64,000 bases of DNA from an uncultured Acidimicrobiia bacterium (GCA_964195995.1 CAXMQS010000036.1:100961-164960), one strand, 5' to 3'; positions 27,424 to 54,957 are shown, numbered from the stretch's first letter. A program made the numbers and translations. The notes: generated from the letters alone by a model not told the origin.

Positions 27424-27495
27424 GGGCGCTTAGCTCAGCGGGAGAGCGCTTCCCTGACGCGGAAGAGGTCACAGGTTCGATCCCTGTAGCGCCCA
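27424..27495 (+). tRNA. tRNA-Val (anticodon GAC)
   Basis: Acceptor GGGCGCT/AGCGCCC, anticodon arm CTTCC-CTGACGC-GGAAG, T arm ACAGG-TTCGATC-CCTGT. The integrase gene starts 29 nt downstream. Confidence 0.95.
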
Positions 27496-27523
27496 CCGGA
27501 AAAGCCTTGCGCTGTAAGGGCTC

Positions 27524-29362: not shown

Positions 29363-29451
29363 GACCTCATCCTACCTGAAACGTCAACGGTTCCACAACA
29401 TGCGTTCTTAGAACTACCAGAATGGTGAAACCGTTGTGTTATAGTGGAGCC

Positions 29452-29706
29452 ATGGCAGCCCAATCCAGATCGTTTCTTACCCGCCTGATAGCCGGCCGAT
29501 TCAGCGCTTTGTCAGGCGCCGGGCGCGAGATTCGCGAGGAGGCTGGGCTTTCCCTAGCTGAGGTGGCGCACGCAGTCGGCGTAGACAAGGGGACGTTGAG
29601 CCGATGGGAGCGGGGACTGGCTCGCCCTCGACGGAGTCAGGCCTTGCGCTACGAGGAGGTCCTGCGCGAGGTAGTAAAGGCAATGGTGGGATCCGATGAG
29701 CGGTGA
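29452..29706 (+). CDS. XRE-family HTH transcriptional regulator
   Basis: IREEAGLSLAEVAHAVGVDKGTLSRWERG is a classic Cro/C1-type HTH. Start set to ATG 29452. Confidence 0.75.
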   Translation: MAAQSRSFLTRLIAGRFSALSGAGREIREEAGLSLAEVAHAVGVDKGTLSRWERGLARPRRSQALRYEEVLREVVKAMVGSDER

Positions 29707-29905
29707 TGTGAGGAGCAAGGGGTTGATAAGACCGATGTTGACCCCTGTTGAACTCGCAGCGTTGCTTCGAGTGCCCCTGGCGACTTTGTACGCCTGGCGG
29801 TCACGAGGAGAGGGTCCACCTGCTCTGAAGATCGGAAGACACCTCCGCTACTTCGAACAAGACGTTGAGGCATGGGTCCGCAGCCGAGGAGAAGATGCGC
29901 GCTAA
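29696..29905 (+). CDS. excisionase-type (MerR-like) DNA-binding protein
   Basis: LTPVELAALLRVPLATLYAWRSRGEGPPALKIGRHLRYFEQDVEAWV matches the helix-turn-helix excisionase family pattern. Alternative start ATG 29735. Confidence 0.7.
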   Translation: MSGDVRSKGLIRPMLTPVELAALLRVPLATLYAWRSRGEGPPALKIGRHLRYFEQDVEAWVRSRGEDAR

Positions 29906-30119
29906 CCCGAACTCTCCAAAGAGGTGCCGCACGGTCTTCTCGCGCACACCGCTCACTATCGACCTGCTCACCGCTGAAGCATCTCGCGAGATCCGCACCA
30001 TGGTGCTGGAAGGCTGGGCCGTTACCGACGCTGCTTCGGCCTGGCACGACTGGTTGGTGGGAGTTATCGGCCTTTCAGCGGAGCGGGCCTCCGTGGAGAT
30101 CATCGGAGGCTCCGCATGA
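29895..30119 (+). CDS. hypothetical small protein (translationally coupled between the excisionase-like gene and PrimPol)
   Basis: GAGGAG RBS before ATG 29895. The 5' end overlaps the upstream stop, and the stop overlaps the PrimPol ATG (ATGA). Confidence 0.5.
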   Translation: MRANPNSPKRCRTVFSRTPLTIDLLTAEASREIRTMVLEGWAVTDAASAWHDWLVGVIGLSAERASVEIIGGSA

Positions 30120-30910
30120 TGTCTAGGGCGGCTGTCCGATACGCCGTTGAAGGTTGTTGGTTCGTGTTTCCGGTGGAGCCCCTGGGCAAGATCCCACTGG
30201 TGCCATGGGGCGATGAAGCCACCTTCAATCCCGACACCGTTCGAGGATGGTGGCAACGTCACCCAGAGGCGAACATCGGCGTTGCGTGTGGTCCCAGCGG
30301 ATTGGTGGTCGTCGATGTCGACGGCCCCGAAGGGGTTCAGTCGCTGGCTCGCCTAGGAAGAGACCTCCCTTCGACGCTGACAGCGCAGACCGGCAGAGGC
30401 CATCACTACTACTACAAGGCTCCGACATGGCCGCTCGGCAACACCGCCGGTCGGCTCCCTGGTATTGAAGGTGCGCTTCGTGGTGTTGACCTGCGAGCGG
30501 ACGGCGGATACATCATTACGCCACCGTCGATACACCCCTCCGGAAGGAGGTACCGCTGGCTATCAGGTCCTGTCGAGCCGGCCGCGTGTCCCTCTTGGTT
30601 ACGGCCGTTACCGCGGCCCAAGGCACCAGCAGCCCGCGTCGGTGTCGTTGGCAATGCCTACGCGCTCGCTGCCCTCCGCGAGGAGGTGGGGGCCGTCGGT
30701 ACGACGAAGCCAGGTCGCCGCAACGATCGCTTGAACTCTGCTGCTTTCTCGCTGGGTCAACTGGTGGGGGCGGGATTGCTCGACGCCGCAGACGTGGCAT
30801 CGCTGCTTCTCGGTGCTGCTGGCGTTTGCGGCCTGCCCGACAGGGAGGCGCGCCGCACCGTTGCCTCCGGCCTGGGCTCTGGCATCGCCCAACCCCGTGA
30901 GGTGGCGTGA
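30116..30910 (+). CDS. bifunctional DNA primase/polymerase (PrimPol, N-terminal domain family)
   Basis: VFPVEPLGKIPLVPW, VVDVDGPEG (metal-binding DxD), GRGHHYYYKAP and GVDLRADGGYIITPPSIHPSGRRYRW. Confidence 0.85.
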   Translation: MMSRAAVRYAVEGCWFVFPVEPLGKIPLVPWGDEATFNPDTVRGWWQRHPEANIGVACGPSGLVVVDVDGPEGVQSLARLGRDLPSTLTAQTGRGHHYYYKAPTWPLGNTAGRLPGIEGALRGVDLRADGGYIITPPSIHPSGRRYRWLSGPVEPAACPSWLRPLPRPKAPAARVGVVGNAYALAALREEVGAVGTTKPGRRNDRLNSAAFSLGQLVGAGLLDAADVASLLLGAAGVCGLPDREARRTVASGLGSGIAQPREVA

Positions 30911-32225
30911 GGTGGACATCGACGCGGTTGTCGCCGCTGCAGAACCTGTGACTACCGGTGAACTCCGGGATTTCGCTGATGTCAACGCGCGGCACAACGA
31001 TGCCAGAAGTTCGAGTGTCAGCAGCGCATCGGCTCCGAAGCCCGCTTTGATGGCTGAGGCAACAGGTCCGCCAACGTTGCCCATCGAGGTCTACTACGGA
31101 CCCATCGGGCGATACGTCGAGATCATGCGGCCCACAACGGAGGCACCGCCAGAGTTCCACTTCGGAGCCTTCCTAACCAGCTTGTCAATCCTGTTCGGCA
31201 CCTGCTACCTCGAAGTTGGCGGGCGACGGCTATATCCGACGCTGTTCAGCATCCTCACTGGAAGCACCGGTATTACCCACAAGACCACCGTGGCGAATCA
31301 GGTGGTGACCTTCCTTCGTCTCGTCGCTCCCGACCTGATCATTCTTCCCGGCTCAGGGAGTAGGGAGGGCCTGGTGAAGAGCCTCCCCGACGAAGGCTCT
31401 CCGGTGTTCTGGCGGGCACCCGAGTTCACCCAGCAGTTGCGCAAGGCCGCCAACAGCGGCACGGGCAATCTGGTGGAGTTCTGGCTGGAGATCTACGACA
31501 GGCCGTCTTCCATCGAGCACCGGCTGGCCAAGGAGACCATCATCAAGCACAACCCCTGCGTGGCGATGCTGTCCGACGGCACCGAGTCCTACCTGACCGA
31601 GGTCTTTTCGGTGGCAGCCATCGGGAACGGACTGCTGAATCGTCTATGCATCTGGATGGGACAGCCAGGTGGTCCGATCCCGTTCCCTCCCGCTCCCGAC
31701 ACGGTCGAGCTGGATCGGCTGGTCGAGGAAGTGCGGCTGGCGGCGAAGAAGGCTGAGGGCCTGCCGGTGACCGCATCGGAGGAGGCCCTTGAAGCCTGGA
31801 GCGACCTGTACCACGCCGAGGTCTACCCGATGCAGCAGAGGCCAGGTGGGGAGGCATACGCGCGGCTGTCTGACATGACGTGGAAGGTGGCGACCATATT
31901 CACGCTCGCTGATCAGCGGTCCGTCGTCGAGAAGGACGACCTCCTCTCCGGATGGACGGTCGCCAAGTACCTCGTCGAGTGCTCTTCGAGAATCGCCGGA
32001 CAGATTGGGGCCTCGGAGCAGGCACAGCTATGTGAGGCGGTGGCGACGGCTGTTGAGAAGCACGGCCCGATTCCCAGCGCGGGCTACCTACCAAGGCACA
32101 TCAGCCCACGATGGCGGTCGAAGCTCGATGACTTCGGCGGGGCAAAGCGGGTGTTGGACCGGCTGGTGCGCGATGAGCGAATCGACTTCGCGGAGGGGCG
32201 CGGTTTCTTCGGCATCGGGACGTAA
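30897..32225 (+). CDS. DUF3987-like protein (primase-associated helicase-like partner)
   Basis: Large ORF coupled to PrimPol. The pattern YYGPIGRYVEIMRPTTEAPPEFHFGAFLTSLSILFG resembles DUF3987 proteins that follow PrimPol genes. Start set to GTG 30897 (alternative 30912); the track start 30813 lies inside PrimPol. Confidence 0.6.
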   Translation: MRWREVDIDAVVAAAEPVTTGELRDFADVNARHNDARSSSVSSASAPKPALMAEATGPPTLPIEVYYGPIGRYVEIMRPTTEAPPEFHFGAFLTSLSILFGTCYLEVGGRRLYPTLFSILTGSTGITHKTTVANQVVTFLRLVAPDLIILPGSGSREGLVKSLPDEGSPVFWRAPEFTQQLRKAANSGTGNLVEFWLEIYDRPSSIEHRLAKETIIKHNPCVAMLSDGTESYLTEVFSVAAIGNGLLNRLCIWMGQPGGPIPFPPAPDTVELDRLVEEVRLAAKKAEGLPVTASEEALEAWSDLYHAEVYPMQQRPGGEAYARLSDMTWKVATIFTLADQRSVVEKDDLLSGWTVAKYLVECSSRIAGQIGASEQAQLCEAVATAVEKHGPIPSAGYLPRHISPRWRSKLDDFGGAKRVLDRLVRDERIDFAEGRGFFGIGT

Positions 32226-32391: not shown

Positions 32392-32443
32392 TTCGCGCAA
32401 TCCGCGAGGGGTATCCCCCCTATACCCATAGGGGGCCGGGGCC
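32392..32443 (+). repeat. double-hairpin repeat B, copy 1
   Basis: TTCGCGCAATCCGCGA...CCCCTATACCCATAGGGGGCCGGGGCC, containing hairpins TCGCG-caatc-CGCGA and CCCCTAT-accc-ATAGGGG. About 80 percent identical to copy 2. Confidence 0.7.
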
Positions 32444-32645
32444 TTACCATCATGGGGTTAACTTCCTGTAACTAAGGGGCCCGGAGGGGTAATCAGGGAC
32501 CAGCGATTCACGCGAAACACCGCGTGAGGGGTACCAAATGCTGTGGGTACCGTCACGCCTCTCGACACCCTTTGCACCCCCGACTAAACGCCTCTTCCAA
32601 TACCGACCCAAGGGCTATACCGCACCTGTACTCGACAGAAGTACT

Positions 32646-32679
32646 GCACACCAGGGCGTGACCTCGCCTGAGGTCGAAC
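32646..32679 (+). repeat. R repeat, partial copy R0 (right half only)
   Basis: GCACACCAGGGCGTGACCTCGCCTGAGGTCGAAC. It lacks the CTCTAGGAACATTCG left part and lies about 100 nt upstream of the cyclase-STAND gene. Confidence 0.8.
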
Positions 32680-32776
32680 CGACGGTGGCATTTGGGATCG
32701 TGAAGAAGAAACAGTCTGCGACGAGTCATGGCCAGGCGTAGTCTGATGAGACGCTACGAACCAACAGCCTCATTCA

Positions 32777-35398
32777 ATGAAACTGCCGACTGGAACCGTC
32801 TCCTTCCTCTTTACTGACGTTGAAGGCTCGACCCGACTGCTGCACCAGTTAGGTGAGCGGTATTCGAATGCCCTCGAAACCCATTCCAGAATCATCGAGT
32901 CTCGTGTTGGCGCGGCTGATGGCGTTGTGGTGAACACCGAAGGTGACGCCTTCTTCTGTGCGTTTTCAAATGCTGCCGATGCAGTCGGAGCTGCGGTGGG
33001 CATACAGCGGGACTTCGCTGATTACGCCTGGCCGCCTGATGGACAGTTTCGTGTTCGGATGGGCATCCACACCGGTGACGGAACCTTGGGGGGTCGGGAT
33101 TACGTCGGAGTGGACGTGCATCGAGCGGCTCGTATTTCGGCTGCTGGTTACGGCGGGCAGATCCTTGTGTCGGCTGAGACGTTTGCGCTAACAGAGCGGA
33201 GGCTTCCCGGCGGTGTGGCGATGCGCGATCTGGGCGAGCATCACCTGAAGGACCTCCCACGTGCCGAGCATGTGTTTCAGGTGGTTGTTTCCGAGTTGCC
33301 CTCCGACTTCCCAGCTCTGAAGTCAGATTCCAGAAGATCTCACAACCTTTCAGCCACGCTGAATACCTTTGTTGGTCGGTCTGATGAACTAGTTGCGATC
33401 AGCGAGCGACTTGGTGCGTCCCGACTGATCACGCTGGTGGGGCCTGGTGGCACGGGGAAGACCCGGTTGGCCGTCGAGGTTGGTTTCAACGTACTTGACA
33501 TCCTCACGGATGGGGTGTGGATGGTCGAGTTGGCTTCGGTATCCGAGTCTGGTGGTGTCCAGCGTTCGCTCGCTGCGGCTCTTCGACTGCGGGAACAACT
33601 CGACATCGCTTTGGTGGACACGATCTCTGATCATCTGGCTCAGAAGTCCGCGCTCGTCATCCTCGACAATTGCGAGCACCTACTTTCGGCGTGTGCCGAA
33701 CTTGCTGACCATCTCCTGCGGTTGTGTCCCGAAGTCCGCATGTTGGCGACGAGCCGCCAGGCGCTTGGTGTGTCGGGCGAAAGAGTCCATCAGGTCGCAG
33801 GGCTTACTGTTCCTACTGCTGAGATGTCTGGCGAAGAGCTTATGGCATCCGAGGCCGTGGAACTGCTCGTTGATCGCGTGACAGAGCGTAAGAGAGATTT
33901 CTTACTCACGGTCGAGAATTCAGAAGCAGTGGCCCAGATTTGTCGTCGCCTTGATGGCATTCCACTGGCAATAGAACTCGCAGCGGCCAGGGTCAACGTC
34001 TTGGGAGTCGAGCAGATCGCTGGGCGGCTTGATGATCGGTTCCGATTGCTGACTGGTGGAACCGCTGTCGATCTTCCCCACCACCAAACGTTGCGGCTGG
34101 CGATGGATTGGAGCTATGACCTACTTGTCGCCGAGGAAGCGGCTTTGTTTCGGTGGTTGTCGGTCTTTGCGGGAGGATGCTCACTGGAAGCTGTCGAGTC
34201 GGTGTGCTCCACCGATTCTGTGCCGGAGTCTGCCGTCCTCGACCTGTTGCAGGGCCTCATCGAGAAATCGCTAGTGGTCGTCGATGATCATCAAAATCCG
34301 GTGCGATATCGCATGCTTGAAACCGTCCGCGCGTATGCCGACGACAAGTTGGCCTCATCCGGCGAACGGGAAGCGGCGCTGGTTAGTCATGGGCGTTATT
34401 ACCTGCGTGTGGCCGAAGAGGCTGAACCCGCTCTGCAAGGTTCAGTTGACAGCTCGTCACAAGCAGAGGTTCTCGACCGGCTGGAGCTTGATCATGGAAA
34501 CTTCCGTGCTGCGATGGAGGGGCTCCTGCATACCGAGCAGGACCTTGTTGGCAGGCTGGCTGGATCGCTGTGGCGCTATTGGGAAGTTCGCGGCCACCTC
34601 AACGAGGGAAGCGAATGGATGAAAGCAATTCTCGAAGCCGGACGAGAACTAGCACCAAACGTCCGTGCCAAAGCTCTCGCCGGCGCAGGAAAGCTCGCCT
34701 GGCGTCGGGGTGCCTTCGAGGAAGCAGAACCACTATTCCGCGACAGTCTTGAACTGTGGCGCACAGTGGATGACCGGGCCGGAGAAGCTAACGCCCTTCA
34801 TGGTCTAGCCAGAGCAGCACTCAACCTAGGCCACCACGAGGAGGCGCAATCGTCGGGAGAACAAAGCCTGGCGATCCAAACCGAACTCGAAAACCCGCAA
34901 GGCATCGCCACCGCGATCAATACCCTCGGAGAGGTCGCTCGGCTCAAAGGCGATCTCCACCAAGCCCAAGATAGGTATATGGACAGCCTCCACATCTATG
35001 AGGACATTGGGGATACAGCCGCCTTCATCACCGTTAAGCACAACCTTGGATATACCGCCCTAGGTCAAGGCGACACCGAACGGGCCGAGGCTAGATTCCT
35101 CGAAGCGATGACAATCGCACGAGACCTGCAAGACCATCTCGGCATCTTCTCGATGTTCGGAGGGTTGGCCGCTGTAGCGATTACGCAAGGAGACGCCGTT
35201 CGAGCTGCAACATTGTTTGGTGCTTCTAGTGCTGTCGCGACAGATGGATACGCGGGGGATCGAGTGGACCAAATCGAGGTCCAACGTAATCTGGCAGCAA
35301 CGCGAGCGGTTCTCGAACCCGAAACTTTCAACCGAGCATGGCAGGACGGCGAAGAAATGCCACGCGAAGCAGCTATTGCCTATGCGCTAGGAACATGA
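32777..35398 (+). CDS. class III adenylate/guanylate cyclase fused to a STAND (NB-ARC/AAA-type) NTPase and TPR repeats
   Basis: Cyclase domain (VSFLFTDVEGST, NTEGDAFFCAF, RMGIHTGD). Walker A LVGPGGTGKTRLA and Walker B ALVILDNCEHLL. C-terminal TPR-like repeats (ANALHGLARAALNLGHHEEA, ATAINTLGEVARLKGD). Visibly more A/T-ending codons than the housekeeping block. Confidence 0.85.
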   Translation: MKLPTGTVSFLFTDVEGSTRLLHQLGERYSNALETHSRIIESRVGAADGVVVNTEGDAFFCAFSNAADAVGAAVGIQRDFADYAWPPDGQFRVRMGIHTGDGTLGGRDYVGVDVHRAARISAAGYGGQILVSAETFALTERRLPGGVAMRDLGEHHLKDLPRAEHVFQVVVSELPSDFPALKSDSRRSHNLSATLNTFVGRSDELVAISERLGASRLITLVGPGGTGKTRLAVEVGFNVLDILTDGVWMVELASVSESGGVQRSLAAALRLREQLDIALVDTISDHLAQKSALVILDNCEHLLSACAELADHLLRLCPEVRMLATSRQALGVSGERVHQVAGLTVPTAEMSGEELMASEAVELLVDRVTERKRDFLLTVENSEAVAQICRRLDGIPLAIELAAARVNVLGVEQIAGRLDDRFRLLTGGTAVDLPHHQTLRLAMDWSYDLLVAEEAALFRWLSVFAGGCSLEAVESVCSTDSVPESAVLDLLQGLIEKSLVVVDDHQNPVRYRMLETVRAYADDKLASSGEREAALVSHGRYYLRVAEEAEPALQGSVDSSSQAEVLDRLELDHGNFRAAMEGLLHTEQDLVGRLAGSLWRYWEVRGHLNEGSEWMKAILEAGRELAPNVRAKALAGAGKLAWRRGAFEEAEPLFRDSLELWRTVDDRAGEANALHGLARAALNLGHHEEAQSSGEQSLAIQTELENPQGIATAINTLGEVARLKGDLHQAQDRYMDSLHIYEDIGDTAAFITVKHNLGYTALGQGDTERAEARFLEAMTIARDLQDHLGIFSMFGGLAAVAITQGDAVRAATLFGASSAVATDGYAGDRVDQIEVQRNLAATRAVLEPETFNRAWQDGEEMPREAAIAYALGT

Positions 35399-35533
35399 GC
35401 TCGCCAGGTTTGAGATTCCCATCACAAGCCTCGATCCGGATCTAGGAACATCGGTGGTCTCTCCCGAATCCCCGCTACCGCTACACGCAACCAAGAACAG
35501 ACCCGCAATTCCCAGTGCGACTAAGAATCGCAT
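35387..35533 (-). CDS. hypothetical small lipoprotein (48 aa)
   Basis: GGGAGA RBS before ATG 35533. MRFLVALGIAGLFLVACSG is a lipoprotein signal with a lipobox. Convergent 12-nt overlap with the cyclase gene end. Confidence 0.4.
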   Translation of the reverse strand: MRFLVALGIAGLFLVACSGSGDSGETTDVPRSGSRLVMGISNLASSCS

Positions 35534-35570
35534 CTTGTCTCCCGTTTCGTGGAGGGGGACCCTCAGAGGG

Positions 35571-35656
35571 CCTGTTCCCCCGCGGGTCCCTTCGCGTCCT
35601 CTAGGAACATTCGTGCACACTGGCACACCAGGGCGTGACCTCGCCCGAGGTCGAAC
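35571..35656 (+). repeat. R repeat copy R1 (GC-hairpin left module plus full 53-nt right module)
   Basis: CCTGTTCCCCCGCGGGTCCCTTCGCG + CCTCTAGGAACATTCGTGCACACTGGCACACCAGGGCGTGACCTCGCCCGAGG + TCGAAC. Confidence 0.9.
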
Positions 35657-35720
35657 GACTAGCTGGTGTCCGACGATTCCTACTCGCTCTTCAGTGTGCA
35701 GACGGCTACCTATGGATGAT

Positions 35721-35770
35721 TTCGCGCAATCCGCGACGGCGGCCCCCTATCCCCATAGGGGGCCGAGGCC
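35721..35770 (+). repeat. double-hairpin repeat B, copy 2
   Basis: TTCGCGCAATCCGCGACGGCGGCCCCCTATCCCCATAGGGGGCCGAGGCC, with the same two hairpins as copy 1 at 32392. Confidence 0.7.
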
Positions 35771-35959
35771 TCGCTAGCGGCCCTCAGAGGTGCTTGGACA
35801 GCCGCCCTCACGCAAGGGCGGCGAAAACCAGCATGATGGGTTGTCTCTCCTGCGGCTCTCGGATGCTTCCCCTGCTCCGGGGATACCCCTCTCCCGAGGC
35901 GATGCGGGCAGCGTTCGATCAGGGGTTGATAGCTAGGCGTGCGATCCTCCGCCAGATGA

Positions 35960-36238
35960 TCAGTACTGGACGGACTCAGCTTCTTCGTACACCTCAACGC
36001 GAGGCTCGCCTGTCACACCCGCCTTGTCCATGTTCGCCTTCAGGTCAGGGTTCTCGATCATCTCGTTGGCTGCATCAATGGACTCGAACCCGACGACGAC
36101 GGCCACCGTGTTCGGATCGCTCACCAACCGGTTGACGCGAGCGAACGATGCGCCGAATGTTCCGGGGTTTCGCGCGTCGTAGACAGACTTCCACGCCTCA
36201 TAATCGGCAACCGGGTGCTGGATAGCAACGACAATCAT
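35960..36238 (-). CDS. hypothetical small protein (92 aa, possibly a ferredoxin-like/ABM-like fold)
   Basis: AAGGGAG RBS before ATG 36238. MIVVAIQHPVADYEAWKSVYD... has no recognised signature. Confidence 0.55.
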   Translation of the reverse strand: MIVVAIQHPVADYEAWKSVYDARNPGTFGASFARVNRLVSDPNTVAVVVGFESIDAANEMIENPDLKANMDKAGVTGEPRVEVYEEAESVQY

Positions 36239-36289
36239 TCGTACTCCCTTAACTCTGCCCGACCGTGGTGCCGGACCTCTCTTCAACCT

Positions 36290-36436
36290 TACCAGTTGAT
36301 GATGGAAGGAGTGCCGGTGCCGATCATCCAGAAGCAACTAGGACATGCGAGCTTGGCTACGACGCAGCGGTACCTGGAGCATCTTGCCCCTGCGGATGTG
36401 ATTGAGGCAATGCAGCGACGGGAGTGGTCGGTCTAG
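36290..36436 (+). pseudogene. C-terminal fragment of a tyrosine recombinase/integrase
   Basis: The translation ...MMEGVPVPIIQKQLGHASLATTQRYLEHLAPADV matches only the last ~45 aa (LGHxxxxTTxxYxH, catalytic Tyr region). No upstream catalytic boxes are present. The stop TAG lies within an inverted copy of the GC-hairpin module. Confidence 0.7.
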
Positions 36437-36463
36437 ACGCGAAGGGACCTCCGCCGAAGCAGG
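36433..36463 (-). repeat. inverted copy of the GC-hairpin (left) module of the R repeat
   Basis: The reverse complement reads CCTGCTTCGGCGGAGGTCCCTTCGCGTCTAG; compare R6 CCTGCTCCGGCGGGGGTCCCTTCGCGTCTAG. Confidence 0.75.
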
Positions 36464-36515
36464 AGTCCCAGGCGACCGAACGGCTCGTCGGACGCCTAGA
36501 TCGCTGGCTGTCCTA

Positions 36516-36815
36516 CTAGGGGCCGGGCAGCGGTCGGAAATTGTCGATGAAGACCTCCTTGCTCCGTGAGTAAGCCGGTGCCAGTAGGCAGACAAAAGAG
36601 TCCCCGTTGTCGTCAAACTCCGCGCCCTCCGGGAAGCTGGTTACCGATTGCAGTGCCCACACGATCGGGTTATGCAGCGGCTCCCCGGGAAGTGGGACAG
36701 GATCCGAGGCTGGACCGGGACACCCGCCCAGCGGTGCTCCATTGGCCGATGCCGGTAAAGGCACCATCACAAATACCAACAAGACGACAAGCGCCAACAA
36801 CATGGGCTTTCGCAT
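36516..36815 (-). CDS. hypothetical secreted small protein (99 aa)
   Basis: GGGAGGAGG RBS before ATG 36815. Signal peptide MRKPMLLALVVLLVFVMVPLPASA. Confidence 0.6.
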   Translation of the reverse strand: MRKPMLLALVVLLVFVMVPLPASANGAPLGGCPGPASDPVPLPGEPLHNPIVWALQSVTSFPEGAEFDDNGDSFVCLLAPAYSRSKEVFIDNFRPLPGP

Positions 36816-36952
36816 AAATCCTCCTCCCGCCTTGGATGCCAACCCTGGGGGAGGGGTCACTGGGCCGCTAGAGGCTTAGGGCCGAACCTTGTCGGCTCTT
36901 GGTGACCCGCGAAGGTGCAGAAATCTCCACCGATCTGACCGGAACCGGCCCG

Positions 36953-37004
36953 CTTTAGGAACATTCGTCAACACTGGCGCACCAGGGCGTGACCTCGCCT
37001 GAGG
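36953..37004 (+). repeat. R repeat copy R2
   Basis: CTTTAGGAACATTCGTCAACACTGGCGCACCAGGGCGTGACCTCGCCTGAGG. Confidence 0.9.
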
Positions 37005-37032
37005 CCGCGGTGTCAGAGTCCGCGATCTCGGC

Positions 37033-37962
37033 TCAACCGTTGTGGACGATCTCCACGACGGGTTGCATCGCTTCCACCGTGGCGGCCGTCCTCGGAAAGA
37101 CGTCGCACCGGACTTCGTTGAACCCGAGTTTGCCGAGTGAGAGGATGAACTCCGCGATCTGTTCGGAAGTCCCCGTCACCGGCTGTTTCATGTCCAGACC
37201 TTCAGCCGCACCGTTGCTGCTGAACCCTTCGGGAACCACGGTGTACAGGTCGAAGGTCCGTCCCACAGTGGCAGGGTCACGGTCCTCGGTCTGACACGCC
37301 CGCTCTAGCACCTCAATGATCGGTCCGATCCGCTCACCGATCTGTTCAAGAGTCTCGTCCCAGCCCCACCAGTTCCACGAGTCGGCGTACTTAGCGACGA
37401 GTTGCAGCATCTTCGGGCCTCCTGCCGCAATGTTGATAGGCGGACCCTGCTGACGAGGACCCCGCAGCACCAACTCGGCTTGACGGGCCGTGTAGAACTC
37501 ACCCTCGAAGTCAATGGCACCATCCCGGAGCAGGCCATGAATGATCTGGATTGCTTCGGCAAACCGTGAGTACCGCTTATCTGTTGGGAAACCGAACGCC
37601 TCGTAATCGGAATCTTCCGTGTTCCCTGCTCCGATTCCGAGTACGAACCGACCTCCCGAGATTTCGTCGATCGTGTCCGCGATCTTTGCCGTCATCGCGG
37701 GAGAGCGGTATGGAGAGTTGACCACCGACTGTCCCAGGCTGATTCGGTTGGTCGTCGCAGCGACCGCCGCCGCGATCGACACCGATTCCCAGACCCCATC
37801 GGTAGCACTCTCTGCCCGATACAGCAGGGCGTCCTCGAACACGAACATGTCGAATCCCGCCGCCTCTGCGGTGGCCGCCTGTTCGCTGATCGATTGCCAA
37901 GTAGGCGGCGGTGGGTCGCCGCCGGGTCGGCCATGAAGCTGCGTGATTAGCCCGACTCTCAT
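37033..37962 (-). CDS. LLM-class (luciferase-like) F420-dependent oxidoreductase
   Basis: MRVGLITQLHG..., FDMFVFEDALLY, GRFVLGIGAGNTEDSDYEAFGFP and a length of 309 aa fit the luciferase-like monooxygenase family. Confidence 0.8.
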   Translation of the reverse strand: MRVGLITQLHGRPGGDPPPPTWQSISEQAATAEAAGFDMFVFEDALLYRAESATDGVWESVSIAAAVAATTNRISLGQSVVNSPYRSPAMTAKIADTIDEISGGRFVLGIGAGNTEDSDYEAFGFPTDKRYSRFAEAIQIIHGLLRDGAIDFEGEFYTARQAELVLRGPRQQGPPINIAAGGPKMLQLVAKYADSWNWWGWDETLEQIGERIGPIIEVLERACQTEDRDPATVGRTFDLYTVVPEGFSSNGAAEGLDMKQPVTGTSEQIAEFILSLGKLGFNEVRCDVFPRTAATVEAMQPVVEIVHNG

Positions 37963-38021
37963 GGGTGGAACCTAGCCCGCCCGCACATGGAGGACTTCTT
38001 GTGCTTGGTTTCGTGAGCAGT

Positions 38022-38073
38022 CCTCTAGAAACATTCGTGAACCCTGGCACACCAGGGTGTGACCTCACCTGAG
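38022..38073 (+). repeat. R repeat copy R3
   Basis: CCTCTAGAAACATTCGTGAACCCTGGCACACCAGGGTGTGACCTCACCTGAG. Carries paired (compensatory) substitutions relative to the other copies. Confidence 0.9.
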
Positions 38074-38158
38074 ACCCCCACTCCTTAGGCGGCTGTCCCT
38101 CGCGTCGCTTGCTGGGGGCTAGGCGCTAGGCGCTGCCTGTTGTGAACTGTCGGCAGAG

Positions 38159-38764
38159 CTAGCGCCGATTCCCTGCACCTTCGCCGATGGCATCGAGGAC
38201 CTCGGGATCGTCGATGAGCCCGCCGCCACGAACTGTTGCCCCAATCGTGAGGGCGGCCGACACCAGCACGATGTTCTTGAGGATGTACTGGCCTTCGAGT
38301 GTCGGCACGAATAGGTCTGACCAGGTCACCTCTGGGAACAGGAACAGCGGTGTCACGGTTCCGAGCATCTGACCGACCAGCAACAGCAGCGTGAGGCGCA
38401 TGAACCTGCCTGCAACGAGTCCGATCCCGATCGCCGTTTCGAGGGTTGCCAGCGAGACACGTGCGAGACCTTCAGTTATCAACCCAAAGGAGAGCCGGTC
38501 GATCGTCTCTGTGGCGAGTTGGTCGGCGGGACTCAGACCCGGCCAAAACTTGAGCACTCCGAACCAGATGAAGATGCCTCCAATGCTGATCCGCAAGAGG
38601 GTCAGTCCGTGCTCCGCAAGCCAGCGGGTTACTCGGCGGTCGATCGCCTGGAACGCTGTTCGATCCACGTGGGCAACGTTATTGCTGCCGGCGAGGTAGC
38701 AGAAGTGGTTCTCGGAAATGGGCAACAGTTCCAGCGTTCTTGCACACGGCGAACAGATCACCAA
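38159..38764 (-). CDS. DoxX-family membrane protein
   Basis: Four TM segments with LLRISIGGIFIWFGVLKFWPG, typical of DoxX/YkgB-like proteins. Start uncertain. Confidence 0.65.
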   Translation of the reverse strand: MVICSPCARTLELLPISENHFCYLAGSNNVAHVDRTAFQAIDRRVTRWLAEHGLTLLRISIGGIFIWFGVLKFWPGLSPADQLATETIDRLSFGLITEGLARVSLATLETAIGIGLVAGRFMRLTLLLLVGQMLGTVTPLFLFPEVTWSDLFVPTLEGQYILKNIVLVSAALTIGATVRGGGLIDDPEVLDAIGEGAGNRR

Positions 38765-38834
38765 TTCAGGAGCAAGCGCGAGAGTCCGACAATGTGCTCC
38801 AGAACTCCACTCGGCGATCTACTCCAACTCATGG

Positions 38835-38887
38835 TCCTCTAGGAACATTCGTTGACGCTGGCACACCAGGGCGTGACCTCGCCTGAG
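38835..38887 (+). repeat. R repeat copy R4
   Basis: CCTCTAGGAACATTCGTTGACGCTGGCACACCAGGGCGTGACCTCGCCTGAGG. Confidence 0.9.
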
Positions 38888-39057
38888 GGAGAGCCGGGCT
38901 TGGGAGCACCCGGCACAGTGAGCTACTCATCGAGCGCGGTGCGCGTGAGCCCGTATCTCAAGTGAATCGATTCACAGGTGAATCGAGGTCTTTTGACCCT
39001 ATTCGTCCAAGGCGCCTAATGATGGTCTGCACCCACCGGCTGGGAGGAGACAAGCAC

Positions 39058-39717
39058 ATGGGCGCTCAGGTGTTGCGATCACTGCGCCTTGTGACCTCAC
39101 TCCTCGTCGTTGTGGTTCTAGTTGCGGCCTGCGGTGACGCCACCGAGGTGACCACGACGACGGCTTCGCCTGGCGCTCCATCAGAGACGGAGGCCCCACA
39201 GGCTACGGATGCAGCCCCAACGACTAAGGAGCCGTCAGTGGCCGCCGCAAGCATTGCAGAAGCCGGACTGCCGACTGAGTGGTTGTTAGGGAGCCCGCAA
39301 CAAGCGGAATCGGATTCACAAACCAGCGGGGATGATGAGGGTTTCGTTTTGGACATCAGCTTCCGATTCAGAAGTGACCAATATTCCGCAGAGGGCAAAG
39401 TGACTCACGAGCTAGAGCTGGTCCAAGGGGCCGTGGTGGAATGCAATGGCAGGACGTACGACGAAGAATTCCTGTGGTCGGCGATATCTCCGGGTACGGG
39501 CGAATTGGATTTCGGAGACTCGGGTTCGGTCACGATCGAATTTGAGGCGGTGGCAGTTGCTTCGATCGACGCCGCGGCGTGGCCCAAGCAGTGCTGGGAA
39601 TGGAACGGCACTTACACAGGTGCCTCGGGGAACCTGGCTACCGCCACAGGAACGTTCACCGCGGTTATTCCCGGACAACATTCAGGCGAGCCTTACGTAA
39701 TCACCTTCGATTCCTAA
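39058..39717 (+). CDS. hypothetical lipoprotein (219 aa)
   Basis: GGAGGAG RBS before ATG 39058. Signal/lipobox LLVVVVLVAACGD. No recognised domain. Confidence 0.65.
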   Translation: MGAQVLRSLRLVTSLLVVVVLVAACGDATEVTTTTASPGAPSETEAPQATDAAPTTKEPSVAAASIAEAGLPTEWLLGSPQQAESDSQTSGDDEGFVLDISFRFRSDQYSAEGKVTHELELVQGAVVECNGRTYDEEFLWSAISPGTGELDFGDSGSVTIEFEAVAVASIDAAAWPKQCWEWNGTYTGASGNLATATGTFTAVIPGQHSGEPYVITFDS

Positions 39718-39728
39718 GCCGCAGCGCT

Positions 39729-39782
39729 CCTCTCTAGGAATATTCGTCAACACTGGCACACCGGGGCGTGACCTGCCTGAGG
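39729..39782 (+). repeat. R repeat copy R5
   Basis: CCTCTCTAGGAATATTCGTCAACACTGGCACACCGGGGCGTGACCTGCCTGAGG. Starts 12 nt after the upstream stop codon. Confidence 0.9.
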
Positions 39783-40060
39783 TCTCGACGGACCTCGACG
39801 GTTGGAGGAGAAGACAGGCAGCTGGTGTAGGCGTCACCGTGGGCACTGTGAACGGCGTTGACCGCCGAGAACCGACGGGCCTGTTAGGGGAATCCGCCTC
39901 TTGCTCCTGTTGACCGAGCCAATCATCCTCGGGGCAATGGCTTGGCTCCACCACCCGTGCCGGACGAGGAGGTGACGCAAAGGGGCAAATGGGGGAGACT
40001 TCGCCAGATATTGAACACGCTGGCGTCGAAACACGGCGCCCAAACGCATCGAGGGAGAAC

Positions 40061-40372
40061 ATGATGCATGCGATGTTGATCACTTTCGAGTCGACGGCTG
40101 ATCTGGATGATCTGAAAGGTCCCTTCACTGATTACGCGAATGCGCTACAAGGGGTGGTGGGTCTGGTCTGCAAGACCTGGTTCCGGGACGGATCAACACT
40201 GGGTGGCTTCCACATCTTCACCAGCCGAGAAGACGCCGACAGCTACGTGAGCAGCGACCTGGTGGCAGGTCTCACCTCCAATGAGGCCTTCTCGGAGTTC
40301 CAGATCCGCCACTTCGACGTGCTCGACGAGTTGAGCGCCATGACCGGCAGCCCCGAGAAGGCGCTGACCTAG
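40061..40372 (+). CDS. YdhR-like small monooxygenase-fold protein
   Basis: GAGGGAG RBS before ATG 40061. The 103-aa pattern LVCKTWFRDGSTLGGFHIFTSREDADSYV...HFDVLDELS parallels E. coli YdhR (WKVWTE...GGIYLFTDEKSALAYL...FDVNEPLS). Confidence 0.6.
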   Translation: MMHAMLITFESTADLDDLKGPFTDYANALQGVVGLVCKTWFRDGSTLGGFHIFTSREDADSYVSSDLVAGLTSNEAFSEFQIRHFDVLDELSAMTGSPEKALT

Positions 40373-40378
40373 ACCCGA

Positions 40379-40463
40379 CCTGCTCCGGCGGGGGTCCCTT
40401 CGCGTCTAGTCCTCTAGGAACATTCGTGAACACTGGCCCACCAGGGCGTGACCTCGCCTGAGG
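40379..40463 (+). repeat. R repeat copy R6 (GC-hairpin left module plus full right module)
   Basis: CCTGCTCCGGCGGGGGTCCCTTCGCG tctagt CCTCTAGGAACATTCGTGAACACTGGCCCACCAGGGCGTGACCTCGCCTGAGG. Starts 7 nt after the upstream stop. Confidence 0.9.
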
Positions 40464-40759
40464 TTGAAGTTTGGCTGGCCGATGACGATGCCTCCTCAAC
40501 TCACTCGATCAGCAACTCGATTACTTGGATCTCTTGTCTACAAGACGCTGCTTCGAGGGTCTATTAGGTAAAGGCACGAAGGAAGACCGCGATCGACAGC
40601 GTCGAATATGTGCAGTCACATTTGTCGGTTGCTGTGCGTCTCTTGGAGTGAGGACAGAGAGGCGAGTCGTGGTCGAAGATGTCTGGCGAACCGCGAGGAG
40701 ATGGACCGCTCGGTTGCCGACTCCTGCTGTTACGGCTTGTAACCAAGGAGGAGATTTCT

Positions 40760-41266
40760 ATGCGCAAGCTCACGTTGGTGTTCGTCGTCGTCTTGCTGGC
40801 GGCGATGATGCTCCCGGCGGCACCCGCAGGTGCTCGCCCGGCGAGCTGGAACCCAGTGACATTCGACGTTACCGACTGTGATACGAACATTTGTACCGAA
40901 GGGGGGGTCCCTGATAGCCCCTTCAGGTTCGAGGTCCTGGCCGATCTTGCAGAGGTCACGGGGCTTTCGCCGGAAACGATTGCCGCCTGTGCAGAAGCAA
41001 CCTCAGGCACCCGGATCGGGTGGGAGGACAAATCGAACAAGAAGAAGATCCAGCTATGGATCCGGTTCCCTTGCGTGCCTGAGCCTAACCCTGACGACCT
41101 TGACCCCAATTGGACCTCGTTCAATTTGTTCATACGAGGACACCAGGGCAGTGTCGAGGTCGACTGGAATCTCTACGGCGGCAATGGAGACCTCTATGGC
41201 CTGCGCGGCGGGGGCAGCGGCAACGTGGTCGGTGGCGTCTATAGCCTCGACGGAAGACTGAAATAG
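40760..41266 (+). CDS. hypothetical secreted protein (168 aa)
   Basis: AGGAGG RBS before ATG 40760. Signal peptide MRKLTLVFVVVLLAAMMLPAAPAGA. Confidence 0.65.
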   Translation: MRKLTLVFVVVLLAAMMLPAAPAGARPASWNPVTFDVTDCDTNICTEGGVPDSPFRFEVLADLAEVTGLSPETIAACAEATSGTRIGWEDKSNKKKIQLWIRFPCVPEPNPDDLDPNWTSFNLFIRGHQGSVEVDWNLYGGNGDLYGLRGGGSGNVVGGVYSLDGRLK

Positions 41267-41290
41267 GAGGTCCTGTCCAGTCTTGGGGCC

Positions 41291-41336
41291 CCTGCTCCGG
41301 CGGGGGTCCCTTCGCGCACCCCGCACAACTAGAACG
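41291..41336 (+). repeat. R repeat terminal partial copy R8 (left module plus CTAGAAC stub only)
   Basis: CCTGCTCCGGCGGGGGTCCCTTCGCG caccccgcacaa CTAGAAC. The ACTGGCACACCAGGGCGTGACC right part is missing, and the array ends here. Confidence 0.7.
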
Positions 41337-41937: not shown

Positions 41938-41959
41938 CCGTCAGACTGAAGATCCGATG
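41938..41959 (+). repeat. tRNA-Phe-like anticodon-arm fragment, copy 1 (left direct repeat of the SIR2 gene)
   Basis: CCGTCAGACTGAAGATCCGATG contains TCAGA-CTGAAGA-TCCGA (anticodon GAA loop). Matches 20 of 22 nt with 43315-43336. Confidence 0.35.
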
Positions 41960-42054
41960 CCAGCCAAATGCGTTGGCGCACATCGGACGACTTGTCCCGC
42001 AGTATTGCTGCACCACCATCGAGCTACAGTCGTTGAGGCCGCGACCTGTGGGCG

Positions 42055-43326
42055 ATGCAAGGAATCCACTCGGTGACCAGTCAACCCCCTTCCGACGGAA
42101 CAACCTACCTACTCGGTGCAGGCTTTAACCGGGTACTCGTCGATCATGAGGGTTTTAGGCCTCCGCTGGATGTCGATTTCCTCACGTTGGCGCTCACACA
42201 TCCGCAATGGGGAGGTATGCCGGGGTACCGCCCAGAGTTCCTCGACGTCTACTCAGCGCTGTTCAAGTACATCCTCTCCTACTGGCACCTCACGCCCGAC
42301 GAGCTGACTCAGGAGAACATTCCAGAGCTTCGCCAGCGTCGCTTTGGGCTTGAGAGCTGCCTCACCCTGCTCGAGCTCCAAATGGCCGATGAAGGTCGCA
42401 GCGGACTGTTTGACCTGGGGGAACTGAGAGAGGTGTGGAATAGCGCAGTCCATCTCGTCACAAAGTCCCTCAATCTCTTCAATTGGTTCCCTTTTCTGAC
42501 CGGTACAGACGTGTTCTTCGCATTCGCCAAGCGGGTGATGGACGAACGTGCGACCGTCATAACGCTCAACTACGACACACTGCTGGAGCAAGCACTGCAA
42601 CGTGTGTCGGGGTGGAACGAGGACTTTGAGTCCTCTGACATAGGTGCTGATGGGACCACGGACCTTTGGGGCAAAGGACGCGTGCAGTCAGATGCGCTGC
42701 TCGACAGGCAGCTGGTGACGGGCAGATTTCGGTGGCGTCCGGAGCTGGCGTATGGGTTCCAGTTCGATCGTGTGGAACTTGAGGCACCTTCCGGAACCTG
42801 GGTCGACGGTGCGACCTTCTACGGGCGTCCCGAGAATCACCCGTACGCCGAGCCAATTCTCAAGCTTCACGGATCTCTCAACTGGATACGCCCCAATCCA
42901 GAGTTTCCGTCTGTGGAAACTTTCCAGGAGCAAACGAATGGAAACCTCACGATCAAGGTCAGCGCCATAGATCTAGACCCGATCCTTCCTAGGGAGTTGC
43001 TTCAGCTGAAGACACCGGTCCCGGCCAAGAGCTTTCGGGAAGCGCCATTCAATGATCTATACGAGGCTGCGCGGGAGTCGTTGCGCGTCACCAACAGGTT
43101 GGTTGTAGTCGGCTATTCCTTTCCTGCGACAGATTTCCACATCAATCGACTACTAATGGAAGCGTTCGCTGAAAGGCAGCCCGATGAGGTGATCGTCGTG
43201 AACACCGATGAGAGCGTTGGTGACTTCGTGGCAGCTCTATTGGACCGGCGCCTGACCTCCTTCAAGGGTCTCGCAGAGTTCCTAGACGCAACATCTACAC
43301 CAACGACACCGCCGCCGTCAGACTGA
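42055..43326 (+). CDS. SIR2_2-family (SIR2-like NADase superfamily) protein
   Basis: YLLGAGFNRV (GAGxS-like), VITLNYDTLLEQAL, ILKLHGSLNW (catalytic His) and LVVVGYSFPATDFHINRLL (GYSxxD). A/T-richer codon choice than the housekeeping genes. Confidence 0.8.
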   Translation: MQGIHSVTSQPPSDGTTYLLGAGFNRVLVDHEGFRPPLDVDFLTLALTHPQWGGMPGYRPEFLDVYSALFKYILSYWHLTPDELTQENIPELRQRRFGLESCLTLLELQMADEGRSGLFDLGELREVWNSAVHLVTKSLNLFNWFPFLTGTDVFFAFAKRVMDERATVITLNYDTLLEQALQRVSGWNEDFESSDIGADGTTDLWGKGRVQSDALLDRQLVTGRFRWRPELAYGFQFDRVELEAPSGTWVDGATFYGRPENHPYAEPILKLHGSLNWIRPNPEFPSVETFQEQTNGNLTIKVSAIDLDPILPRELLQLKTPVPAKSFREAPFNDLYEAARESLRVTNRLVVVGYSFPATDFHINRLLMEAFAERQPDEVIVVNTDESVGDFVAALLDRRLTSFKGLAEFLDATSTPTTPPPSD

Positions 43327-43345
43327 AGAACCGAAGGTCGAGGGT
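43315..43345 (+). repeat. tRNA-like fragment, copy 2 (anticodon arm through the 5' T stem), overlapping the SIR2 stop codon
   Basis: CCGTCAGACTGAAGAACCGAAGGTCGAGGGT. Shares 20/22 nt with copy 1 and the 15-mer CCGAAGGTCGAGGGT with copy 3. Confidence 0.45.
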
Positions 43346-43784
43346 GGGATGTGAGCCTCTTCATGAGGTGCAAAGAGTGACATGTTGCAACCAGGTCGAA
43401 CTCGCGAGTCGGGCTGAACCTCCTATATCCCGTACCTCGGACCTGACGGGGAGCCTTCTTATCCAGACCTCCAGTCAATGCTTGGGTCAGGCCGCAGACA
43501 GGCCGCGAGGCACGGCGAATCAACGCAAACCATCTCTGGTTGCTGGCGAAACCGCCGATCTGCCCATGATCCCTGAACCTTCTCAGACCTCCTGATTCGC
43601 CCTCACGCGGCAGAGGTCGCTTGGTTCGATCCACAGCGTCAGTCGAGACTGCTACCCAACTGCTACCGAACGCCCCATAACCAGCCGTCACAGGACGACA
43701 CAGCCTGAACGCCATCGCCTAGGAACCCAGACAGACCGGGCCTAGCCGACACCCGATGACACTGGCTGGACCCCGAGCACCGAA

Positions 43785-43829
43785 CTTATAATCCGAAGGT
43801 CGAGGGTTCGATCCCCTCCCGGCCCACCA
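43785..43829 (+). pseudogene. 3' half of a tRNA gene (anticodon loop to CCA), with no 5' half
   Basis: CTTATAA-TCCGA-AGGTC-GAGGG-TTCGATC-CCCTC-CCGGCCC-A-CCA forms a canonical variable loop, T arm, acceptor 3' strand and CCA. The upstream 40 nt have no D arm and no matching acceptor strand. Confidence 0.7.
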
Positions 43830-44104
43830 AGGAAGCCCTGGTCAGCGCGGACGTCTCCTGGGTTTGGGCCAGTGGTCGTCGTCTACGGACCCGGCTTTTG
43901 GGCTTGCCTTCACCCGCCCCTTCCATATGCGCTATGCTTGTCGTGATATATCAGACGCCCATCTACTCGAGTAGCCGCCGGCAGGAGGCCTCTATGCCGA
44001 GTTTCCTCGGGCTCATCGAATCTTGGATCGAGCCCCAGATCTCCGAGATGCTTGCCGCACGATTGCGGCTTGCAGGAGCGCTCGGCTGCGGTTGAGATGA
44101 CGCC

Positions 44105-54468: not shown

Positions 54469-54566
54469 GCACGGCCTCTGGCGGTTAGCAGCGGTCAACA
54501 GCGGTTCGTCGAAACGCCAGTGCCTAGATCGTGAAACTCAGAATCGTCAGTAGCTATAGGACATCT

Positions 54567-54859: not shown

Positions 54860-54957
54860 AAACAGCCTCTGCGAACATTGCGGATTCGCTTTGCACCTGC
54901 AGTCTCGCGAGTATTGCTGAGACTGGAACCCCCATGAGATAGAGCGCATGGTCGAGA

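Follow-up and report, generated by a model that had tools for sequence, protein, structure and literature searches.

Units and repeats of the array

We analysed a 64-kb stretch of DNA from an uncultured Acidimicrobiia bacterium (GCA_964195995.1 CAXMQS010000036.1:100961-164960), here called the window, and within it a row of small gene units separated by copies of a 53-nt repeat that we call B. Positions are counted from the first nucleotide of the window. In total, the window contains six full and two half copies of B, every one on the + strand (Table 1). A search allowing three mismatches recovered four of the full copies, and repeat finding together with half-pattern searches brought the count to six; the 53-mer had no match in 100 shuffles. 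Seven of the copies lie within 8 kb and one in the remaining 56 kb. The initial annotation, which was made from the sequence alone, had described six full copies in this orientation, and all six stand, with refined starts at 36952, 38836 and 39731 (one base deleted). It had also placed a truncated copy at each end of the row. The left one, at 32646, is a genuine partial copy of which only the right part is kept. The right one, at 41291, is not the 53-mer but a separate hairpin (module A below), and its interpretation as the left half of a recombined site did not hold. A further right-half copy lies outside the annotated range, at 56406-56440.

The intervals between repeats hold one or a few genes each, as had been annotated, and the units measure ~0.7-3 kb. 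Pfam searches confirmed the assignments of the luciferase-like monooxygenase, the DoxX-family protein, the YdhR-like protein and the large cyclase protein of the first unit, a signal transduction ATPase with numerous domains (STAND). The genes for the 219-, 168-, 99-, 92- and 48-aa proteins have good ribosome-binding sites, and those of the first four are of the GGAGG type, in line with the strong sites that had been claimed for them. The integrase remnant read in the second unit was likewise recovered by its motif and its PHROG match, and it has no similarity to the intact integrase at 27524-28657. For + strand genes, the repeat or a hairpin begins ~0-18 nt past the stop codon, which agrees with the close spacing first reported. 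The string of gene orientations (- - - - - + + +) was wrong for the first unit, because the cyclase-STAND gene is on the + strand.

Homologues of the 48-aa lipoprotein on two related contigs (L014 and L017; L numbers denote related contigs throughout) keep the same position relative to the repeat. The 92-aa protein had no match in Pfam, NCBIfam, PHROG or PADLOC, and the unit cargo had none among defence or immunity models. In searches for close relatives of the unit proteins, all but the YdhR-like protein formed singleton clusters.

Table 1. Coordinates of the repeats, hairpins and genes of the array, followed by those of the island in which it lies
Feature	Position	Strand	Basis or remark
P-region, conserved non-coding, ~250 nt	32392-32640	+	starts with nested palindromes (GAGGGGTATCCCCCCTATACCCATAGGGGG); runs into R0
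R0, B2-only copy at array start	32646-32673	+	0 mismatches to B2 consensus; nhmmer model positions 26-53
Unit 1, adenylate/guanylate cyclase - NB-ARC/AAA - TPR (STAND), 873 aa	32777-35398	+	Pfam Guanylate_cyc, NB-ARC, AAA_22, TPR
Unit 1, 48-aa lipoprotein (lipobox LVAC)	35387-35533	-	start-site analysis
R1, degenerate hairpin A (35571-35596) and full 53-mer (35598-35650)	35571-35650	+	
P', partial second copy of P-region start	35704-35771	+	93% to 32416-32444; 86% to L031 74-143
Unit 2, 92-aa protein	35960-36238	-	open reading frame (ORF) list, internal ATG start
Unit 2, tyrosine-recombinase C-terminal remnant, motif LGHASLATTQRYLEH	36215-36436	+	PHROG integrase E=6.5e-8; translation
Hairpin A, inverted	36438-36469	-	downstream of minus-strand 99-aa gene; RNA fold -19.5 kcal/mol
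Unit 2, 99-aa secreted protein	36516-36815	-	GGGAGGAGG ribosome-binding site; signal-like N-terminus
R2, full 53-mer	36952-37004	+	
Unit 3, luciferase-like monooxygenase, 309 aa	37033-37962	-	Pfam Bac_luciferase E=2e-48
R3, full 53-mer	38022-38074	+	
Unit 4, DoxX-family membrane protein, start codon uncertain	38159-38764	-	Pfam DoxX E=7.6e-6
R4, full 53-mer	38836-38888	+	
Unit 5, 219-aa lipoprotein	39058-39717	+	GGGAGGAGA ribosome-binding site; no significant family match
R5, full copy minus 1 nt (deletion)	39731-39782	+	
Unit 6, YdhR-like protein, 103 aa	40061-40372	+	Pfam ydhR E=4.8e-9
R6, hairpin A (~40373-40404) and full 53-mer (40411-40463)	40373-40463	+	
Unit 7, 168-aa secreted protein	40760-41266	+	AAGGAGGAG ribosome-binding site
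Hairpin A alone, end of array	41285-41316	+	RNA fold (41280-41322) -26.8 kcal/mol, z=-3.1
Lone B2-only copy	56406-56440	+	second low-GC segment; between convergent genes (PAS-cyclase, PALP enzyme)
tRNA-Val(GAC)	27424-27497	+	final gene of Gly-Cys-Val cluster; left border of low-GC island (ARAGORN, Rfam)
Intact tyrosine recombinase, phage-integrase type	27524-28657	-	Pfam Phage_integrase E=1.3e-16
Helix-turn-helix (HTH) regulator	29422-29706	+	PHROG transcriptional regulator E=2e-8
Excisionase-like gene	29696-29905	+	PHROG excisionase E=6.5e-10
Prim-Pol	30116-30910	+	Pfam Prim-Pol E=4e-46; replication module; PHROG helicase and primase families
DUF3987 primase/helicase-like protein	30813-32225	+	Pfam DUF3987 E=5e-11; replication module; PHROG helicase and primase families

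Modular anatomy and recurrence in related DNA

When 32 full copies, taken from the window and from related contigs, are aligned, the intergenic element proves to be a mosaic of an optional hairpin (module A), B itself, which consists of B1 (CCTCTAGGAACATTCGTNNAC) and B2 (CTGGCACACCRGGGCGTGACCTCGCCTGAGG), and, in metagenome copies, another hairpin (module C). Conservation of B is near-uniform over 52 nt with sharp edges, the variable positions being 18, 22, 28, 33 and 41. The constant core is B2, which occurs on its own in seven copies (window 32646 and 56406; L016 2075; L017 867; L012 6073, 7196 and 10942), and one copy (L016 3610) retains just a degenerate B1. At five junctions inspected by eye (window 32646 and 56406, L016 2075, L017 867 and the first repeat of L031), the left part was lost within positions ~19-25 of the 53-mer, as expected from the initial placement of the break near a variable hexamer.

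Module A is a GC hairpin of 26-32 nt with the consensus GGGACCCCTGC-UCCG-GCGGGGGTCCC, followed by TT(TT)CGCG; the L009 copy folds at -31.8 kcal/mol (z=-5.4). In the window, the copies at 35571 and 40379 lie ahead of a 53-mer, the one at 41285-41316 has no 53-mer beside it, and the one at 36438-36469 is inverted. Because it is present in either orientation behind whichever gene precedes, module A behaves like a terminator module, and a simple terminator scan left it unflagged because its T-run is short. A copy with 28/30 identity also lies between convergent genes at L019 8457-8486 (- strand), on a contig without the 53-mer. Since module A is present in this relative (65% protein identity, no B), it is older or more widespread than B. 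Module C (CCGACACCACTCTGCGTAGAGGTGTAGG) is found 3' of B2 in many metagenome copies. The combinations seen were A-B1-B2, B1-B2-C, B1-C, B2-C and P-B2-C, and either A or B2 also occurs alone.

The P of the last combination refers to the P-region that runs into the first repeat of the window. It matches L031 91-345, where it too lies ahead of the first repeat, and at L017 839-869 a short piece of it is joined straight to B2. The region is highly structured, lies just downstream of the primase/helicase gene and is found at the array start in two genomes, with fragments also inside arrays (window 35704-35771; L017 820-869). It could be the replication origin of an integrative element or a platform for the array. 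Another intergenic module, of ~128 nt, containing TTTCCCGAAAAGGCGTACAAGAT and lying upstream of B2, is shared by L016 3460-3586 and L017 230-358 at 82% identity.

We searched one genome for each of 185,579 species with a degenerate 22-nt core of B and obtained one true match, L004, a 2.5-kb contig with three copies. It belongs to a metagenome-assembled genome (MAG) of an Acidimicrobiia bacterium, whose label is the sole taxonomic name among the relatives. Four further genome matches to the core were discarded as chance, as they had no similarity outside the pattern. From 241 million metagenome records we recovered nine true contigs, mostly from one sample series, and B had no match among IMG/VR viral contigs, plasmids or phages.

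The contigs with co-oriented arrays number nine, namely L004 and eight metagenome contigs, two of which overlap. A profile search counted nine copies on L012, six on L016, five on the overlapping contigs L007 and L013 together, and two or three on each of L004, L014, L009 and L017. B is co-oriented on every contig with more than one copy, and the distance from one B2 to the next ranges from 155 to 2974 nt (median ~820 nt, n=28). All nine copies on L012 fall within 6 kb, with none in its other 8 kb, and the 6.6 kb beside the L007/L013 array, which encode the Der GTPase, a carboxyltransferase, glutamate dehydrogenase and BrkB, are free of copies. This clustering, together with co-orientation and one copy per boundary on the multi-copy contigs, supports the view first taken of B as a cassette-like repeat rather than a dispersed one of the repetitive extragenic palindromic (REP) type. 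Genes on the metagenome contigs were called roughly, from ORFs and GC content at third codon positions (GC3); by these calls about three in four genes run with B and the others are opposed, and B never flips. The cargo there is small and mostly single-domain, and comprises an F420H2 quinone reductase, an ABC-transporter pair, many unknowns and, judged from translations, a pair of extracytoplasmic function (ECF) sigma and anti-sigma factors.

The initial annotation had proposed that related loci be compared for gain, loss or reshuffling of units at repeat boundaries, and one such difference was found. A search with the YdhR-like protein led to a 99% identical protein on L031, a 2.4-kb NCBI metagenome contig. 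Positions 393-1108 of L031 correspond to 39750-40464 of the window, with 582 of 590 interior positions identical (98.6%), and the common block runs B2 - spacer - YdhR - A - B1 - B2. The left limit of the similarity is the B1/B2 boundary, and the right limit is the last base of B2. The flanks of this block differ on both sides: the YdhR unit is the first after the P-region in L031 and the sixth in the window, and downstream of it L031 has a SHOCT-domain gene and an 82-aa gene, both missing from the window, where the next unit encodes the 168-aa secreted protein.

Three weaker cases come from the metagenome contigs. L013 and L017 have one downstream unit in common (92% identity), and their upstream DNA is unrelated. 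L016 and L017 share an upstream segment, after which L016 continues with a degenerate B1 and B2; at that place L017 has a zinc-ribbon gene (CPECG motif, by eye) and the palindrome of P fused to B2. The ABC-transporter pair of L016 is bounded by a B1-C junction and a B2-C junction, formed by one copy without B2 and one without B1. More distant YdhR homologues (83-88% nucleotide identity) have the coding sequence alone in common with the window, and no B was found near them (L021-L030 and L032-L038).

One of these contigs, L021 (ENA contig_17003, 84 kb), carries at 1-20309 many small genes in mixed orientation with repeat families of their own, among them PemK, Phd/ParE and MazE toxin-antitoxin genes. 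Its YdhR gene is flanked by repeats of 88 nt and 51 nt (9723 and 10333), and at 4849 and 4982 this pair recurs with a gene-free gap of 46 nt. This region may be an unrelated cassette-like array.

B as a candidate recombination site

Sedentary chromosomal integrons and integron cassette arrays without an integrase (clusters of attC sites lacking integron integrases, CALIN), such as the Vibrio cholerae repeat (VCR) array, resemble the locus in several ways. In both, mostly single-gene units of ~0.5-1 kb stand in rows, with a homogeneous repeat at each boundary in one orientation and most genes running along the repeat and a minority reversed, and the small enzymes, lipoproteins and secreted proteins of unknown function that make up the cargo differ among close relatives. 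The position of B just past stop codons is integron-like as well. Of the integron features examined, compact units with one co-oriented site each and a content that varies among relatives were the only ones found.

An attC site is a single-strand imperfect hairpin (R''/R', L''/L' and extrahelical bases) in which structure is conserved over sequence, and IntI is an integrase with a specific extra domain, encoded adjacent to attI and the array. B lacks this imperfect-palindrome and extrahelical-base architecture and is conserved as plain sequence. Neither the consensus nor any of the 32 aligned copies has RYYYAAC or GTTRRRY boxes on either strand. Single-stranded folds of three copies, on both strands, gave z-scores of -0.4 to -1.4, no better than shuffles, and for three candidate helices (end pairing, a central CTGG/CCAG stem and a GACCTC/GAGGTC stem) pairing across the 32 copies equalled that of column-shuffle controls. 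The intact integrase of the window scored 31 bits on NCBIfam TIGR02249 (cutoff 265) and 18 bits on NF011946 (cutoff 435), and is a generic tyrosine recombinase, not an integron integrase. No IntI is present, no attI or Pc platform is recognisable, and the host is actinobacterial; published surveys, including that of IntegronFinder 2.0, report no complete integron in Actinobacteria (PMC4889954, PMC9024848). With fold, covariation, box and IntI tests all negative, we rejected the identity of B as attC, and the integron membership considered in the initial annotation was not upheld. That the locus is a canonical CALIN is highly improbable.

Other known classes were considered in turn. Rfam returned no relevant family over the region at gathering thresholds or at E<=1. 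B is not a REP palindrome, as it is 53 nt long with weak internal complementarity and no GTAG-type head. A miniature inverted-repeat transposable element (MITE) was rejected because the ends (CCTCTAGG and CCTGAGG) form a weak 7-bp inverted pair without compensating changes, and no target-site duplication was found in the flanks of six window copies. A coding remnant or small peptide was rejected: in one frame two of the variable positions are third codon positions, but changes at the others alter the amino acid, and there is no conserved start.

Because B is kept as a sequence and not as a structure, it most likely works as double-stranded DNA bound by a protein. Such conservation might also be expected of a regulatory site shared by the units, such as an operator, a silencer-binding site or an insulator after a terminator hairpin, kept by selection for one protein. 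B is immediately preceded by a terminator-like hairpin and has the next gene downstream of it, and metagenome copies run from B2 through hairpin C to the ribosome-binding site of the next gene. However, gene direction flips and B does not, so that B is upstream in sense for some genes and upstream in antisense or downstream for others. Moreover, a uniform conservation of 52 nt with sharp edges exceeds what a binding site needs, a scan revealed no sigma-70-type promoter in B (and by eye no ECF or sigma-54 motif fits), and differences of whole units that end at B would be left unexplained. We therefore consider a regulatory role of this kind an unlikely explanation of the array.

Our preferred reading, to which we give a probability of about one half, is that the locus, in a tRNA-Val island of an uncultured high-GC actinobacterium, is a cassette array similar to an integron but not one, and that B is its recombination site. 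The array, its modular anatomy, its recurrence and clustering and one unit-level difference that ends at B are observed directly, and from these we infer the function of B. Under this reading, direct copies of B would be the places at which units are deleted, inserted or exchanged. Recombination between two direct copies would release a unit as a circle with one B, and recombination of the circle with a resident B would insert it. Insertion at a resident B would automatically leave all copies co-oriented, and excision and reinsertion through direct copies is the simplest route to co-oriented sites, one per boundary, whatever the direction of the genes. Partial copies and the one strain comparison have their breakpoints in two places, where B1 meets B2 and at the outer edge of B2. 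Candidates for the enzyme are a recombinase encoded elsewhere, the family to which the remnant at 36215-36436 belongs, the integrase at 27524-28657, and RecA acting on 50-110 bp of homology. The data fit a dedicated recombinase and RecA acting on such homology alike; that breakpoints cluster where B1 meets B2 speaks for a site-specific event.

Several observations weigh against B as a recombination site. The sole intact recombinase in the window lies 4 kb off, beside the tRNA, and looks like one from an ordinary integrative element. The flanks of L007, L012, L016, L010 and L011, as far as their sequence is available, encode no recombinase; the intact recombinase that was to be looked for beside similar arrays elsewhere thus did not appear next to the metagenomic arrays, and because of this the mechanism of recombination is one that we can only infer. 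The dyad symmetry of B is slight, which is unusual for the core site of a tyrosine recombinase. Because the distant YdhR homologues lack B, no unit has been seen to carry its B across lineages, and the strain-level comparison consists of the single pair of L031 and the window. Finally, the junctions are not confined to one place (left of A, left of B1, at B1/B2 and right of B2), and homologous recombination or modular mosaicism therefore fits them as well.

Mosaicism of this sort is the basis of the main competing explanation, which we regard as possible but doubtful. In it, A, B, C and P would be lineage-specific mosaic intergenic repeats that spread by themselves or are homogenised and pile up in flexible islands, and the unit differences between strains would be a by-product of homologous recombination between repeats. 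Short intergenic modules, hairpins included, are likewise combined in varying order in the bacterial interspersed mosaic elements (BIMEs) of Escherichia coli, the Neisseria intergenic mosaic elements (NIMEs) with dRS3, and the BOX elements of Streptococcus pneumoniae, and all of these repeats serve as rearrangement substrates. The BIME-like trait is present here, in that A, B1, B2, C and P are joined in several combinations. Further points on this side are the junctions at several module edges, module A in both orientations and in L019, a relative without B, the lone B2 at 56406 between convergent genes, and the lack of a linked recombinase in the flanks examined. However, BIME, NIME and BOX repeats are dispersed genome-wide in many copies and both orientations, whereas in the sequences searched B is seldom seen (in a single genome among 185,579 species, and on nine metagenome contigs). 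It clusters strongly there, each gene boundary having one copy and adjacent housekeeping DNA none, and is strictly co-oriented, which in a freely inserting repeat would need an extra strand bias. B is also non-palindromic, without a GTAG-type REP motif or a target-site duplication.

Two further systems are comparable to the favoured cassette array, and the first of them, together with sedentary chromosomal integrons, comes closest to it in function. The rAID-1 (recombinase-associated acquired interbacterial defence) clusters of Bacteroidales have a conserved XerD-family recombinase as their first gene and immunity genes as cargo (bioRxiv 10.1101/471110). They too are integron-like without being integrons, with numerous small genes, a skewed GC content and a motif that recurs between genes, but the arrays described here are headed by no recombinase and their cargo has no toxin-immunity signature. 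We rejected a rAID-1-type array on these grounds, as no XerD-family recombinase heads the arrays and the unit cargo matched no defence or immunity model.

In Xer/dif modules (the pdif modules of Acinetobacter plasmids, and arrays of integrative mobile elements exploiting Xer, IMEX, at dif), small modules likewise lie between short sites and the module has no recombinase gene of its own; the sites are used by a host recombinase. Unlike B, pdif sites alternate in orientation, and B is 53 bp rather than 28 bp long and has no dif dyad. B1 (ACATTCGTCAAC) resembles, with a 1-nt gap, ACATTATGTCAAG, which we take to be the XerD arm of actinobacterial dif, and the resemblance may be due to chance.

More specifically, and tentatively, the locus might represent an undescribed cassette system of Acidimicrobiia-like Actinobacteria, with a 53-bp double-stranded site, crossover at B1/B2, the P-region in the role of attI and a non-IntI recombinase that is encoded elsewhere or of the remnant type. 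Such a system would be analogous to integrons and mechanistically unrelated to them. In our view the locus is integron-like in layout but built on an unrelated site, and its host belongs to a major phylum in which integrons have not been established; to place it in a category of its own would take a dedicated recombinase and mechanism. Integrons are the standard example of a device that gathers and shuffles single genes, and an independent cassette system on a different site would mean that this architecture evolved more than once. It would also offer a handle on how the flexible gene pool of uncultured environmental actinobacteria is assembled, and it could supply a new site, perhaps along with a new recombinase, from which to build genetic tools for high-GC Gram-positive bacteria. 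Should B instead prove to be a mosaic repeat, it is still a short marker with clear limits for the flexible islands of a sparsely sampled lineage.

The island around the array

The array lies in a low-GC stretch (~59% GC over 31-44 kb, against ~65% elsewhere in the window) that sets in at a tRNA Gly-Cys-Val cluster identified by ARAGORN and Rfam. The integrase, HTH regulator, excisionase-like gene, Prim-Pol and DUF3987 gene that follow tRNA-Val are the gene set of a small integrative element. L019, which has the same tRNA cluster and 65% identity in the flanking protein, was the only usable contig for the orthologous tRNA locus; synteny ends at tRNA-Val, beyond which its DNA is quite different, and the 53-mer was not found in it. 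Because L019 diverges right after tRNA-Val and is without the 53-mer, the region is a variable hotspot. Relatives of the DUF3987 protein were sought to see if the P-region and an array always follow it, and the sole match was the protein itself.

Past the array are a SIR2-like gene and several partial tRNA-like sequences (41938, 43315, 43784-43830 and 54826-54860). The one at 43784-43830 (+ strand) is a 3' tRNA fragment (…ATCCGAAGGTCGAGGGTTCGATCCCCTCCCGGCCCACCA) not called by ARAGORN, with weaker copies at 43315-43350 and 41938-41957, and two shorter direct repeats of its 5' part flank the SIR2-like gene. These fragments, around 41938-43830, look like old attachment sites and may mark the right end of the low-GC island. 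With an integrase at a tRNA, a replication module, cargo, partial tRNAs and an integrase remnant, the setting has the features of a tRNA-targeting element, which concern the setting and not the repeat.

Given this setting, B could be a trail of old attachment (att) sites, left where successive small integrative elements inserted by tRNA-Val and decayed, each leaving a cargo gene and one B. The island opens at a tRNA and has an integrase, an excisionase, a Prim-Pol and a helicase element, a second integrase remnant lies within the array, the P-region is duplicated, and the partial tRNA-like fragments at 43784-43830 and 54826-54860 are like those of tycheposon islands (bioRxiv 10.1101/2020.12.28.424599). 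Tycheposon islands share with this one the tRNA start, the integrase, excisionase, Prim-Pol and helicase-like module, an integrase remnant, partial tRNA copies and cargo of niche and defence type, but their boundary is a partial tRNA and their units are whole elements, whereas here a non-tRNA 53-bp repeat bounds single-gene units. Neither tRNA-Val nor the tRNA fragments resemble B, and we rejected B as a copy of the tRNA-Val 3' end on that account. That the intact integrative element of the island targets B is also unsupported, as its left end abuts tRNA-Val and has no B1. Furthermore, units of 0.5-1.3 kb with one intact gene are too small and too regular for decayed elements, and the neighbours of the L007/L013 and L012 arrays are housekeeping genes or ordinary ones, the stretches examined there containing neither a tRNA nor an integrase. 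That old att sites left such a trail is thus quite unlikely, and the cassette array remains our preferred reading.

The fragment at 54826-54860 (+ strand) is a second tRNA 3' fragment with a CCA end. It matches the tRNA-Val 3' end (27465-27494) at 87% identity, shows compensating changes in the T-stem, and may be a tRNA-Val end displaced by an integration event. Near it, a direct repeat of 123 nt (54564-54686 and 59608-59730, 85% identity) brackets a 5-kb low-GC segment with two PAS-adenylate cyclases, a pyridoxal phosphate (PLP) enzyme, an isochorismatase and the lone B2 at 56406. By eye, both copies of this repeat include, on the minus strand, two-thirds of a tRNA-Arg(CCT)-like sequence, from its 5' side.

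Defence-like cargo of the island includes the SIR2-like gene (42055-43326, + strand), which matched several PADLOC SIR2 models (best E=1.8e-12), and the cyclase-NB-ARC-TPR STAND protein at 32777-35398 (+ strand). The latter is one of three cyclase-domain proteins in the window (32777, 54958 and 58419).

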